From contig JANPCO010000131.1 in assembly GCA_031430995.1 (NCBI GenBank), positions 25,155-89,154 of the forward strand: a stretch of 64,000 bases of DNA, read 5' to 3'. This document shows, in pieces, positions 16,942 to 20,015 of the stretch (position 1 is its first letter; each line of letters starts with the position of its first letter). The notes beneath the pieces are model-generated. The model searched no databases. It was given only the letters and a program-made list of their open reading frames with translations, and was not told the origin of the DNA. The stretch comes from Sphingomonadales bacterium. GTDB taxonomy: Bacteria > Pseudomonadota > Alphaproteobacteria > Sphingomonadales > Sphingomonadaceae. The translations under genes and the position numbers were made by a program.

Positions 16942-16944
16942 TCC

Positions 16945-17023
16945 GTCGCCCTGAACTTGTTTCAGGGTCCATGCCTCACGTTCAAACAGCGTGGCATGGA
17001 TGCTGAAACAAGTTCAGCATGAC
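16945..17023. repeat. Intergenic palindromic repeat, family A, copy 2 (ffh-rpsP spacer)
   Basis: The sequence is gtcgccctgaacttgtttcagggtccatgcc ... ggcatggatgctgaaacaagttcagcatgac. It has the same termini as 2304-2413 but a shorter centre. Confidence 0.85.
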
Positions 17024-17059
17024 GGTTTTGGTTTTTGGATTAAAAAGAAGGAAGAAAAA

Positions 17060-17638
17060 ATGGCAGTTTCAATTCGTTTGTCGCGCGGCGGTTCTAAAAA
17101 GCGGCCTTATTACCGGATCGTGGTGGCGGATGCCCGATCTCCCCGTGATGGCCAGTTCATCGAAAAGGTGGGCACCTATAACCCCATGCTCGCCAAGGAT
17201 GATGCCAACCGCGTGACCCTGAACAGCGAACGCCTGACCCATTGGTTGAGCGTTGGCGCACAGCCAACCGACCGCGTCGCGCGCTTCCTTGATGTGGCTG
17301 GCCTGCGCGAACGCCCCGCCCGCAACAACCCAACCAAGGGCAAGCCCGGCGAAAAGGCCATCGAGCGCATTGAAGAGTTGGAAAAGAAAGCGGCTGCCAA
17401 GGTTGAAGCCGAAGCCGCCGCCAAAATTGCTGCTGCGGAAGCCGCTGAAGCTGCCAAGGCCGCTGCGGAAGAAGCCGCCGCTGCACCTGCGCCAGAGCCA
17501 GAGCCAGAGCCAGAAGTGGTTGCCGAGGAAGTTGCCGCTGAAGAAACAACTCCTCCAGAAGGTGAAGCACCTGCAGAAGCTGCAGAAGAAGAAGCTCCCG
17601 CTGCTGAAGCTGCGACTGAGGAAAAGGCGGAGGGTTGA
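17060..17638 (+). CDS. rpsP: 30S ribosomal protein S16 with a long Ala/Glu/Pro-rich C-terminal extension
   Basis: The protein starts [31 protein letters not shown] from the ATG at 17060, preceded by gaaggaag. The longer track ORF starts inside the family A repeat. Confidence 0.9.
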
Positions 17639-18153
17639 GTCCTTCGGCCCAGCCCCCTCTCCCAACCCTCTCTCCTAAAGGGGAGAGGGTTATCACCCTG
17701 GCCGCCATCATCGGTGCGCACGGGCTGACGGGCGAAGTGCGCTTGAAACTGTTTACAGGCGATGTCAGCGGCTTGAAAGCGCATAAGGCCTTCAACGGTG
17801 GCACGCTGACCCTCAAAAGCCTGCGCCCCGGCAACGCCATCATCGCGCGCTTTGCCGAAATCACAGATCGCAACGGGGCAGACGCCGCGCGGGGCACTGC
17901 CCTGACCGTGCCCCGCACCGCCCTGCCCGCACTGGCGGACGGCGAATATTATCACGCTGACCTAATCGGCCTCCCTTGCGTTTCCACCGATGGCAATGAC
18001 ATTGGTCTATGCGTCGCGGTTGAAAATTTTGGCGCAGGCGATGTGCTGGAGATCGAACGGCCCGACAAGGCCCGTTTCATGGTGCCAATGACAGTGGACG
18101 CTGTGCCCGAGTGGGGCGCGCGCATCATCATTGACGCTCAGTTTGTGGGTTAG
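17635..18153 (+). CDS. rimM: 16S rRNA processing protein RimM
   Basis: It has the [14 protein letters not shown] motif and a PRC barrel region. The only in-frame start upstream is the TTG at 17635, which overlaps the rpsP stop. The exact start is uncertain. Confidence 0.8.
17664..17691 (+). repeat. Hairpin-forming element aaccctctctcc-taaa-ggggagagggtt inside the 5' end of rimM
   Basis: The two 12-nt arms match at 11/12 positions around a 4-nt loop. A second ccctctccc copy lies at 17655-17663. Confidence 0.7.
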
Positions 18154-18183: not shown

Positions 18184-18438
18184 ATGGGCCGAGAGTTTGA
18201 TGCAAAAATTTTTCAATCGGGTAACTCAGTTGCTTTGCGTTTACCCAAGGCGTTAGGCCTTAAAGCTGGTGATATGATGCGGGTCCGTCAAGAACACGGC
18301 AATCTGATCGCAGCGCCAATGGCCTCTCGGAATGAGTATATCGATCTTGAAGGCATCTATGGGTCTGTTCCGGGCATAAGCCGTCCGCCATGTGACGAGA
18401 ACCCACGCGACTGGTATGTCGGCCGTCAAAATGGCTGA
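18184..18438 (+). CDS. vapB: AbrB/SpoVT-type VapB antitoxin
   Basis: It has the SGNSVALRLPKALGL swapped-hairpin motif. It is 84 aa and overlaps the downstream PIN gene by 8 nt. Confidence 0.8.
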   Translation: MGREFDAKIFQSGNSVALRLPKALGLKAGDMMRVRQEHGNLIAAPMASRNEYIDLEGIYGSVPGISRPPCDENPRDWYVGRQNG

Positions 18439-18808
18439 GCCTCTTTTTCTAATTGATACCAACATTTGTATTTATCTGCTGGATGGTCGGGGCGAAAAGG
18501 TTCGGCACCGGATGGAATCGTGCAAGCGGGAACAGATTGTAACGTCAGCAATTGTCCGCGCAGAGGTTATGCTGGGCGCCAAGGCGCAAGATCAAGTTGA
18601 CCGGGCGAAGGCCCTGTTTGCCCAGATCGAAGTGTTGCCGTTCGATTCAAGCGCAGCCGATGCCTACGCCGCGATCCCGTTTTATCGTGGCAACCTTGAT
18701 CGCTTTATCGGTGCCCACGCAATTTCACTTGGTTTGACGCTTGTTACGAATGACGAGAGCGATTTTGAGGACATGCCCGGGTTAAAGGTTGAGAACTGGA
18801 CGGTTTGA
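18431..18808 (+). CDS. vapC: PIN-domain VapC toxin
   Basis: The protein starts MAEPLFLIDTNICIYLL, and acidic PIN residues are present (D in IDTN, E in AEV, D in DRF, TND). The start was moved to the ATG at 18431. Confidence 0.85.
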   Translation: MAEPLFLIDTNICIYLLDGRGEKVRHRMESCKREQIVTSAIVRAEVMLGAKAQDQVDRAKALFAQIEVLPFDSSAADAYAAIPFYRGNLDRFIGAHAISLGLTLVTNDESDFEDMPGLKVENWTV

Positions 18809-19161
18809 TGAAAAATGTTCAGATCATCGACGGTGCTGAAAATTGCACATTTTCCGTGTTTGAATTTACAGACCAGCAGTTCTCGATAATATTTTCAACT
18901 AAAGGTCAAGATTTAGCTTTTGCCGAAGAGCTGGAAACAAGACTTTCTGCTGCTCAACTGGTGATAGCATTTGAAGGTGTTTGGAACCGCCCGGCGGACA
19001 AACAACAAATTCAAGGACTTCATGGAACCATATTCTATGGCTTTTCCGAGAAAAGACATGTCTTTCCCGCGACAAGGCGAGAGTGTGACTGGGACGACCA
19101 AGCGGTTAATGAAGCGCAACGGCAACTAAATTTCATTCGACGTCAGCAGTCTTCGGAATGA
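18808..19161 (+). CDS. Hypothetical protein (117 aa), no family recognised
   Basis: This clean ORF has an ATG sharing one base with the vapC stop (TGATG) and a stop overlapping the trmD ATG (ATGA). G+C is visibly low (hand count 43/120 in the first 120 nt). Confidence 0.6.
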
Positions 19162-20015
19162 CCTTCCAAGCCCAAATCATCACCCTCTACCCCGAGATGT
19201 TCCCCGGCCCGCTCGGAGTCTCGCTGGCAGGCAGAGCGTTGGCAGAGGGGATATGGTCTTGCACGCCCATCCAACTGCGCGACTTTGCGAGCGACAAGCA
19301 CCGGACGGTGGATGATACGCCTGCGGGGGGCGGGGCGGGGATGGTGTTGAAGGCGGATGTGCTGGCGCGGGCTGTGGAGTTTGCGGGTGAAGAGATGGCC
19401 ATGCTGTGCTCCGGCGAAGGCCGGAGCCGACGGGGGCTTGATAACAAGGCATCGCCGGATCCTGCGTTTGGGGCTGGGCTCCGGCCTTCGCCGGAGCACG
19501 GCGAGCGCGCGACCCCGGCTGTCCCCATACTCGCCCTCACTCCCCGAGGCACGCCGATCACGCAGGCCCGCATACGGCAAATCGCCCAAGGCCCCGGTGT
19601 CACTCTGATCTGCGGGCGCTTTGAAGGCTTCGACGAACGACTGTTTGATGCTTACCCGCAAATCGAACAAGTCAGCGTTGGCGACATCGTCCTCTCTGGC
19701 GGGGAGCCTGCTGCGCTGATGCTGCTCGATGCTTGCATTCGGCTGCTTCCCGGCGTAATGGGCGCGTCTTGCAGTGGTGTTGAAGAGTCGTTCGAAAACG
19801 GCCTGCTTGAATATCCGCACTACACCCGGCCCGCTGATTGGGAAGGGCGGCTGATCCCGCAAGTGTTGCGATCGGGGGATCATGCGAAGATCGAAGCGTG
19901 GCGCAAGTCGCAGTCCGAGATCGATACACGGTTACGCAGACCGGACCTTTGGGAGCGCCATATTGGAACTCGGGTTCAGCCTGCCTATGGCGCGCGACGA
20001 AAGAATAAGGACTAA
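19158..20015 (+). CDS. trmD: tRNA (m1G37) methyltransferase TrmD carrying an internal insertion of about 40 aa
   Basis: It has [33 protein letters not shown] and SGGEPAA motifs. Residues around 80-121 have no counterpart in E. coli TrmD as I recall it. Confidence 0.9.
19407..19498. repeat. Perfect 22-bp inverted repeat pair (nested palindrome) inside the trmD coding sequence
   Basis: The arm 19407-19428 (tgctccggcgaaggccggagcc) and the arm 19477-19498 (ggctccggccttcgccggagca) are exact reverse complements. Each arm is itself a small hairpin (ctccggc-gaag-gccggag). Confidence 0.9.

Follow-up and report, generated by a model that had tools for sequence, protein, structure and literature searches.

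Bacterial repetitive extragenic palindromes (REPs) have been divided into GTAG-tagged and CGTC-tagged super-families (Di Nocera, De Gregorio and Rocco, 2013, BMC Genomics 14:522; PMC3733652). Members of the CGTC-1 class consist of an 8-bp G+C-rich stem, a 4-nt loop, and a short tail, and are mostly dimeric and mostly alphaproteobacterial; their hosts include S. wittichii, S. alaskensis, S. chlorophenolicum, N. aromaticivorans, and E. litoralis, and in R. conorii CGTC-1 and CGTC-4 correspond to the Rickettsia palindromic elements (RPEs) RPE-6 and RPE-4, respectively (PMC3733652). No tyrosine transposase gene flanked by CGTC repeats was found in any species examined, and it is an open question in the literature whether CGTC-class REPs still form new copies, with REPs in general being thought to act as transcribed RNA elements (PMC3733652). 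The table of intragenic REPs in the same paper includes the CGTC-1 peptide RAPAKAGA in rarD of E. litoralis and the pyruvate dehydrogenase (PDH) E1 and E2 genes of S. alaskensis, as well as truB, rsmE, glyS, ileS, and dnaE2, with trmD missing from it (PMC3733652). The element described here lies in frame within trmD, the gene of an essential tRNA methyltransferase, of a Sphingomonadales bacterium (assembly GCA_031430995.1, contig JANPCO010000131.1), in a stretch of 64 kb that is referred to below as the window; coordinates are those of the window.

RPEs (Ogata et al., 2000, Science 290:347) are inserted in frame in housekeeping genes, the added loops fitting the protein fold, and two later accounts give RPE-1 as ~150 bp long and encoding a conserved peptide, with about half of the copies of the coding RPE families located in open reading frames (ORFs; PMC10969869; PMC3733652). 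REP doublets forming hairpins (REPINs) are composed of two inverted REP hairpins that fold, across a short variable spacer, into one larger hairpin; arm conservation holds at the level of the population, and the elements are mostly extragenic (Bertels and Rainey, 2011; PMC3116915). The trmD element behaves like an RPE or a REPIN, yet is probably a member of neither. It is likely to be a non-autonomous palindromic repeat of ~100 bp, carried in frame by trmD, in which two CGTC-1-class REP hairpins form an inverted dimer of REPIN-like architecture. The host gene and the parts of the element are listed below (Y, pyrimidine; R, purine).

19158..20015, + strand: trmD coding sequence, 285 aa, host of the element (ORF list; Pfam PF01746; Protein Data Bank, PDB, matches; 119 aligned homologues)
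19395..19520, + strand: segment encoding residues 80–121, missing from solved TrmDs (phmmer versus PDB; empty-site orthologues; AlphaFold)
19404..19428, no strand assigned: left arm, with a YY-GT head (CT-GT) followed by the hairpin GCTCCGGCGAAGGCCGGAGC (19408–19427); encodes CSGEGRS (repeat finder; recurrence of the 22-mer)
19429..19476, no strand assigned: variable spacer of 48 nt, beginning with the inner tail CGACGGGGG and ending with GGGGCTGG (spacer comparison across the family)
19477..19501, no strand assigned: right arm, reverse complement of the left, with the hairpin GCTCCGGCCTTCGCCGGAGC (19478–19497) followed by AC-GG; encodes GLRPSPEH (repeat finder)

The trmD ORF is intact, matching the Pfam family tRNA_m1G_MT (PF01746) at 7.8e-45 and TrmDs of the PDB at up to 1e-86, and the conserved TrmD core is kept in 119 of the 119 aligned homologues. 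By phmmer, solved TrmDs (9ue5, 3ief, and others) align with the window protein in two separate stretches, residues 1–78 and 121–264, and residues ~79–120 are therefore extra. This bears out the original prediction, made from the letters of the window, that a segment at about residues 80–121 has no counterpart; the frame is open, with zero stop codons in the segment and an intact ORF of 285 aa, as had also been stated. Alignment with orthologues, suggested at that stage as a way of defining the indel, yielded close TrmDs with an empty site (for example, P0041/L005; P numbers denote TrmD homologues, and L numbers loci), from which the extra segment is missing.

Within the segment, inverted arms of 26 nt (19403–19428 and 19477–19502; 96% complementary, with 48 nt between them) were located by a repeat finder. 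Since the sole arm mismatch is at 19405, the perfect core of the arms is 23 nt (19406–19428 and 19477–19499), and both of the exact 22-bp arms first described, 48 bp apart, fall within it. Each arm is itself a hairpin, again as described: the left one (19408–19427) has a perfect 8-bp stem and a 4-nt loop, GCTCCGGC-GAAG-GCCGGAGC, and the right one (19478–19497), GCTCCGGC-CTTC-GCCGGAGC, is its complement. Everything reported in the original prediction is present. Dinucleotide shuffles of the window gave a chance expectation of 0 matches for the arms, and the predicted RNA fold of 19385–19525 (−82.3 kcal/mol, z = −4.2) was matched in stability by 0 of 200 shuffles. The whole window had no match in Rfam at the gathering threshold, and thus no known RNA family explains the stem. 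The 64-kb window contains only one copy of the arm, the one in trmD.

Intragenic CGTC-class REPs, including those of Sphingomonadales, and RPEs are already known. What had not been recognized, in the original prediction either, is that many palindrome families share the TrmD loop as a clade-wide hot spot, of which the window carries one allele. Among the best 120 homologues by similarity to the window TrmD (243–331 aa; 119 anchored), sequences differ almost solely at this loop, which holds an insert in 93 of 119, in frame and stop-free in all 93, and none in the other 26. The inserts form at least 10 unrelated peptide classes (A, A′, A″, B, B′, C, C′, D, E, F, and G, with a few composite ones). 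At the DNA level, types A, B, C, C′, E, and F, together with an F allele containing a nested E arm, are all nested palindromes of the same architecture but different sequence; in the fetched loci each of these types also occurs at non-trmD sites, and these insert families are therefore all dispersed repeats. All families begin within ~12 nt past the codons GAG ATG GCN. Orthologues were found to be either empty or occupied by non-homologous palindromic DNA; a homologous, non-palindromic segment shared across the order, which had been named as grounds for giving up the original prediction, was not seen.

The insert classes are distributed nearly at random on the tree of the flanking TrmD sequence, with 67 parsimony changes compared with a mean of 82 (minimum 74) for shuffled labels. 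Pairs that are 99.6% identical outside the loop can differ in class, namely P0015 (C′) and P0016 (B), and P0057 (C) and P0093 (empty); the fraction of same-class pairs was 0.62 at ≥99% core identity, 0.40 at 96–98%, and 0.14 at 90–92%. In a metagenome scan the more distant TrmD orthologues were mostly short-looped, and the hot spot is therefore limited to the closer clade.

The arm of the window element (type A) is a dispersed repeat of Sphingomonadaceae genomes, and is mostly intergenic. A contig scan detected the 20-mer arm in at least 119 stretches of the genome collection, usually as inverted doublets; among the matches listed, nearly all hosts were Sphingomonas, Allosphingosinicella, Sphingopyxis, Chakrabartia, or other Sphingomonadaceae (the complete genome NZ_CP115960.1 being one with matches), there were often several matches per genome, with a + copy followed by a − copy ~50 nt on, and one match (L051, a Chakrabartia metagenome-assembled genome) was within trmD. 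In 1.6 Mb of fetched Sphingomonad DNA, the 22-mer arm has 119 exact copies and 220 with ≤2 mismatches, and 83 doublets plus 70 single arms were recovered at ≤3 mismatches. Thus, the 22-mer, whose copies the original prediction proposed to count across the whole genome, is dispersed across relatives and not unique to trmD. The outline of the doublets is YY-GTGCTCCGGCGAAGGCCGGAGC, a spacer of 10–80 nt (median 31), and GCTCCGGCCTTCGCCGGAGCAC-RR, with positions −2/−1 of the left arm being pyrimidine in 87–88% of the 83 doublets and positions +1/+2 after the right arm purine in 73–89%. The spacers are not conserved, and no target-site duplication, in the form of a direct repeat of ≥2 nt at the ends, was detected in 81 of 83 doublets. 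Since the plasmid collection gave a single partial match, on a Sphingobium megaplasmid, the family is essentially chromosomal. Three type A doublets stand in tandem in each of L034:6057-6367 and L113:7336-7655, with a spacing of ~118 nt, resembling bacterial interspersed mosaic elements; this arrangement suggests local duplication, or insertion beside existing copies.

Of the 153 copies recovered, about 8 (~5%) fall inside confirmed genes, where they invariably occupy linkers or loops. In-gene status was judged by translations and Pfam, since a test of G+C content at third codon positions is suited to high-GC loci, not to the window and its relatives at 57% GC. Besides trmD, the copies located in genes are as follows.

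E2 acyltransferase, L008 and L024: copy between the lipoyl and E3-binding domains (Pfam)
E2 acyltransferase, orthologue, L122: copy placed by translation only
LigA, L058: copy inside the adenylation domain (Pfam)
Edd/IlvD-type dehydratase, L061: copy between the N and C domains (Pfam)
MutL, L086: copy in the linker ahead of the C-terminal domain (Pfam)
ABC-F ATPase, L049: copy in the linker ahead of the C-terminal domain (Pfam)

The frames used in real genes encode CSGEGRS...LRPSPEH or APAKAGA...APAFAGA, and the arms contain no stop codons in the frames read.

Several properties are shared with CGTC-1: both window hairpins have the 8-bp stem and 4-nt loop, the element is multi-copy, dispersed, mostly intergenic, mainly present as inverted dimers (83 doublets versus 70 single arms), and alphaproteobacterial, no transposase of the kinds associated with REPs was found in 1.53 Mb around its copies, and a minority of copies lie in frame inside genes, with the E2-linker copies found here paralleling those of PDH E1/E2 in S. 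alaskensis. Furthermore, CGTC-1 hosts also include Sphingobium, Novosphingobium, and Erythrobacter, and the E. litoralis peptide RAPAKAGA is the window arm translated in frame 3. The differences concern the head, the base of the stem, and the tail. The CGTC head of CGTC-1 is unpaired (with TGTC and CCTC allowed), whereas here YGT is followed by a stem-paired G, giving CGTG or TGTG in 87–88% of the 83 doublets, even though the RAPAKAGA entry, a translation of this arm, is itself classed as CGTC-1; the first two stem pairs are A-T "almost invariably" in CGTC-1, but G-C and C-G here; and the mostly CCA tail of CGTC-1 is replaced by a (C/G)YTGG-like inner tail, with CCA only on the opposite strand. 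The A-T rule is not absolute, since the S. alaskensis CGTC-1 peptides VAPAQAGA and AAPAFAGAT imply G/C at these positions, and the inner tails are variable, the commonest being GTTGCG, GTTGGC, GCTGGC, and CCTGGC on one side and GCCAAC and GCCAGC on the other (83 doublets). Overall, these features are those of a REP dimer of the CGTC-1 class whose head (YGTG) deviates slightly and whose stem base is G-C, not A-T. Alternation of many families at a single site is not described in the CGTC-1 paper, which comes closest to it with different REPs at approximately the same recB site in two Xanthomonas species (PMC3733652).

The likeness to RPEs consists of in-frame insertion at sites compatible with the fold, namely in trmD and in the linkers or loops of E2, LigA, Edd, MutL, and ABC-F proteins. 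However, the host and the sequence are different, about half of the copies are in ORFs in the case of the coding RPE families versus ~5% here, and the R. conorii CGTC-1 (RPE-6) peptides VIPAKAGI and SFPRKRES imply a different, A/T-started stem (PMC3733652); no RPE in trmD is mentioned in the sources consulted (PMC10969869; PMC3733652). The original description of the element as RPE-like is therefore apt for an in-frame, dispersed palindrome that adds a loop, but does not extend to membership of a Rickettsia RPE family or to the share of intragenic copies. With REPINs and their REP-associated Y1/HUH transposases (RAYTs), the element shares the inverted REP pair, conserved arms, and variable spacer, but that system has a GTAG-type head and a single-copy RAYT gene flanked by REPs, in contrast to the YGTG head found here. 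As with miniature inverted-repeat transposable elements, it is small, non-autonomous, and multi-copy, has inverted termini, and is occasionally fused in frame to genes; unlike them, it lacks a target-site duplication (81 of 83 doublets), its arms are hairpins rather than terminal inverted repeats derived from an insertion sequence, and it has no known parent insertion sequence.

Comparison of five type A trmD alleles showed the arms to be 89–100% identical, whereas third codon positions of identical amino acids in the flanks are 55–67% identical and the spacers, 56–68% identical, are unalignable. The arms of the window and L001 alleles are identical at 44 of 44 positions (P ~4e-11 at a neutral identity of 0.58, given a single origin). 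All trmD-borne type A copies carry the inner tail variant C[T/G]A[G/C]GGGG...CCTGG, which is found in none of 77 other doublets; because this variant is theirs alone, they most likely derive from one insertion. The same shared variant led us to dismiss the alternative that type A entered trmD independently in the lineage of the window and in Chakrabartia. Conservation of the arms extends to synonymous positions, which points to constraint on the nucleic acid rather than on amino acids; the arms would be held by selection on the hairpin or by homogenization against the genomic pool of copies. Frozen arms combined with a drifting spacer peptide argue against both a protein-level function and a purely passive passenger. 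Thus, "selfish" DNA, the term first applied to the element, is not the whole story, with the type A copy in trmD looking old and its arms conserved beyond neutral expectation.

Turnover of alleles at the loop can be followed between close relatives. The L207 allele (P0093) equals that of L206 (P0057, type C) minus the sequence between two GGGGAGA direct repeats—the native codons GGG GAG ATG supply one of them, and the right arm supplies its partner—and retains in frame the peptide GEREKAVAP; it is a microhomology deletion with a clean excision footprint. Other short alleles are footprint-like, with P0047 keeping only the right arm and P0030 and P0035 keeping GER. In the closest pairs of different class, a few codons beside the insert differ as well, and short-patch recombination between lineages probably shuffles the loop alleles. 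In addition, the inserts of two Chakrabartia-like trmD alleles, at L001:10237-10327 and L051:1628-1724, have 95% identical flanks and identical arms, with the central ~25 nt of the spacer looking inverted by eye, which suggests an inversion of the spacer center, as expected from recombination between inverted arms.

Some alleles bear what look like traces of more than one element. In the window, GER is encoded directly after the right arm (19500–19508, residues 115–117), as also in P0002 and P0003; it matches both the terminus of the right arm in type C (...SPEGER) and what is left in P0093, P0030, and P0035 as footprints, and a type C element that formerly occupied the site may have left it behind. 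The trmD loop of L132/L133 is of type F with an E-type arm in the loop of its right-arm hairpin (VSTG-DRMSAVHPEPAEG-LDTNG), one palindrome being nested in another, and P0015, P0079, P0086, P0009, and P0055 look similarly composite at the protein level.

An AlphaFold model of the window TrmD (mean pLDDT, the predicted local distance difference test, of 66) has a helix at residues 66–85, coil at 86–123, with pLDDT <50 at 90–116, and a strand at 124–133. The ~40 extra residues are therefore predicted to form a disordered surface loop between helix alpha3 and the following strand, and modeling is to this extent in line with the surface loop originally proposed. In TrmD structures, the strand after the loop carries the TPRG motif and leads into the S-adenosylmethionine (AdoMet)-binding knot. 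Corynebacterium diphtheriae TrmD (7kff, in which 249 of 308 construct residues are modeled) aligns through the loop in one stretch and has a segment of similar length (~40 residues) there, and the loop thus tolerates long insertions in another phylum too. The insert peptide alone gave only chance-level matches in the PDB, and a literature search returned nothing relevant on TrmD loop insertion in Sphingomonads or on 7KFF.

The window is REP-poor, with 7 perfect hairpins versus 5.5 expected under a Markov model, yet the rpsP-rimM-trmD operon (3.5 kb) accounts for three of the four REP-type elements found in it. Those other than the trmD element are given below.

2303–2415: second H doublet, with hairpins at 2307–2327 and 2390–2410; sole REP-type element of the window outside the operon
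16943–17025: H-family nested palindrome, arms CCGTCGCCCTGAACTTGTTTCAGGGTCCATGCC and its complement, just upstream of the real rpsP start
17645–17689: type C half-element, CCCCCTCTCCCAA-CCCTCTCTCCTAAAGGGGAGAGGG, encoding residues 4–19 of the rimM ORF (17635..18153)

The H doublet at 16943–17025 is unrelated in sequence to the trmD element, combining a head of the TGTC/CGTC type with a stem of 8 bp, a loop of 5 nt, and the tail CCA; a listed 215-aa ORF with a GTG start at 16991 begins inside it, and in L156 and L161 the H family is found directly upstream of trmD. The Pfam RimM domain starts at residue 22, past the type C half-element. Elements of type C, C′, or E are present at the rpsP-rimM junction in L132, L147, L210, and L006, and this junction may be a second hot spot. 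Across 94 loci, hairpin density was 0.39 per kb in the operon and 0.25 in the flanks, with the locus set partly chosen by insert type and the 3′ bound of the operon inexact; because of the bias in the locus set, this enrichment was not used as evidence. No terminator-like or promoter-like signal was found at the trmD element. Between rimM and trmD (18184–19161), the window contains genes for a MazE/AbrB-like antitoxin (weak Pfam match) and a PIN VapC-like toxin (4.6e-17) and a 118-aa ORF without a family. This three-gene block is conserved in L001, L002, L006, L207, L209, and L210; in L211 a 417-aa SLFN_AlbA_2 gene stands in place of all three genes, and in L206 such a gene has taken the position of the small ORF alone, the antitoxin-like and PIN genes being kept.

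Among other explanations of the trmD insert, a chance palindrome or an assembly artifact has a negligible probability: it would fit the single copy in the window, but is refuted by the shuffles, with 0 matches expected, by the presence of the element at the same place in independent assemblies (L001, L002/L003, L004, L051, and P0002), and by the recurrence of the arm hundreds of times elsewhere. It is also very unlikely that Sphingomonad TrmD has the extra loop as an adaptation at the level of the protein, serving as a new interaction or tRNA-contact surface, with the palindromic DNA incidental. The insert is almost certainly translated, being in frame and stop-free in 93 of 93 insert-bearing homologues, and the loop lies a few residues ahead of the strand to the AdoMet-binding TPRG motif; however, the peptides of the different classes are unrelated, the type A spacer peptide is unconstrained, the loop is predicted to be disordered and is missing from many close relatives, and what is conserved is conserved at synonymous positions. 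Mobilization as a classical REPIN by a RAYT encoded once elsewhere in the genome would account for the inverted doublet with conserved arms and a variable spacer, for tandem clusters of doublets such as those in L034 and L113, and for the missing target-site duplication, as expected of IS200/IS605-type chemistry. This is nevertheless improbable: the head is not of the GTAG type, a tblastn search with eight published sequences of RAYTs and related TIRYT transposases gave no match at E ≤ 0.01 in 1.53 Mb centered on more than 200 arms or in the window—nor did a weaker RAYT probe find a match around the elements—and CGTC repeats flank no tyrosine transposase gene in the species examined (PMC3733652).

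A fourth explanation can coexist with that of a CGTC-1-class dimer in trmD, namely that the hairpin is retained as a functional nucleic-acid structure in the rpsP-rimM-trmD-rplS operon, for example as a processing site for RNase III or RNase E, a barrier to 3′–5′ decay, or a translation brake lowering TrmD relative to the ribosomal proteins, with the REP families as interchangeable suppliers of stems. In its favor, arm conservation extends to every codon position despite saturated neutral sites and a drifting spacer, at least 10 unrelated families converge on one ~12-nt zone, and predicted stems are −66 to −127 kcal/mol with an insert compared with −15 to −22 at empty sites; such elements also occur at other operon junctions, this operon contains three of the four REP-type elements of the window, and REPs are generally thought to be transcribed RNA elements (PMC3733652). 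Set against this, 26 of 119 close relatives are hairpin-free, some through recent clean excision, the element has no terminator-like or promoter-like signal, the operon density is just 0.39 versus 0.25 per kb in a partly insert-chosen set, and the elements are generic genome-wide repeats. Such a function is therefore doubtful as an explanation of the insert, and an RNA-level role of the trmD element, including the influence of an mRNA stem on trmD and rplS translation that the original prediction raised, is possible but unsupported.

The interpretation of the insert as a dispersed CGTC-1-class dimer tolerated by the loop also has several points against it. Its head, YGTG, is not the canonical unpaired CGTC, and its first stem pairs are G-C rather than A-T. 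Dispersal is seen in relatives, the arm occurring just once in the window itself; an insertion event as such was not observed, and the trmD copies, which appear to descend from one old insertion, do not demonstrate current mobility of the type A family. Random insertion plus tolerance poorly explains the ~78% occupancy of one ~20-nt zone by many families—although the share of about three quarters is approximate, with ranking by an insert-bearing query mildly favoring inserts—and is hard to reconcile with the presence of three of the four REP-type elements of the window in a single operon of 3.5 kb. Nor would a purely passive passenger be expected to have arms conserved so far beyond the neutral level.

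For a CGTC-1-class dimer, insertion would have proceeded via a hairpin or single-stranded DNA and would have been catalyzed in trans by some enzyme; no adjacent transposase and no target-site duplication were found. The element could persist if the loop tolerates any in-frame, stop-free, flexible peptide, and the GC-rich, stop-free arms would ease in-frame survival. Homogenization against genomic copies, or selection on the DNA or RNA hairpin, would keep the arms conserved. Loop alleles would also be shuffled between lineages by short-patch recombination; their turnover proceeds by microhomology deletion with in-frame footprints, by replacement, and, as one Chakrabartia-like pair suggests by eye, by inversion of the spacer center.

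As a single case, the trmD insert adds little, and it is the locus that matters: many families, fast turnover, an excision footprint, and frozen arms come together in an essential, conserved enzyme, and bear on the open question about transposase-less REPs. In practical terms, the length and sequence of TrmD across the loop are a poor phylogenetic marker in this clade, and pipelines for annotation and structure should allow for a disordered segment, encoded by a repeat, at this position. A more far-reaching proposal, put forward tentatively and rather unlikely as it stands, is that many hairpin families of Sphingomonadaceae preferentially land or are exchanged at the alpha3-beta4 loop of trmD, and perhaps throughout the rpsP-rimM-trmD-rplS operon, the arms there being kept by nucleotide-level selection. 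If this is true, either palindromes already in place draw in further ones, with insertion or replacement directed to the hairpins by an enzyme yet to be named, which would mean that orphan CGTC-class REPs are still mobile, or a strong stem has been co-opted to tune trmD expression relative to the flanking ribosomal-protein genes. In both versions, the orthologous site would be a natural assay for the movement and persistence of transposase-less REPs; being easily amplified and showing allelic turnover, it makes the formation of new copies of CGTC REPs testable.

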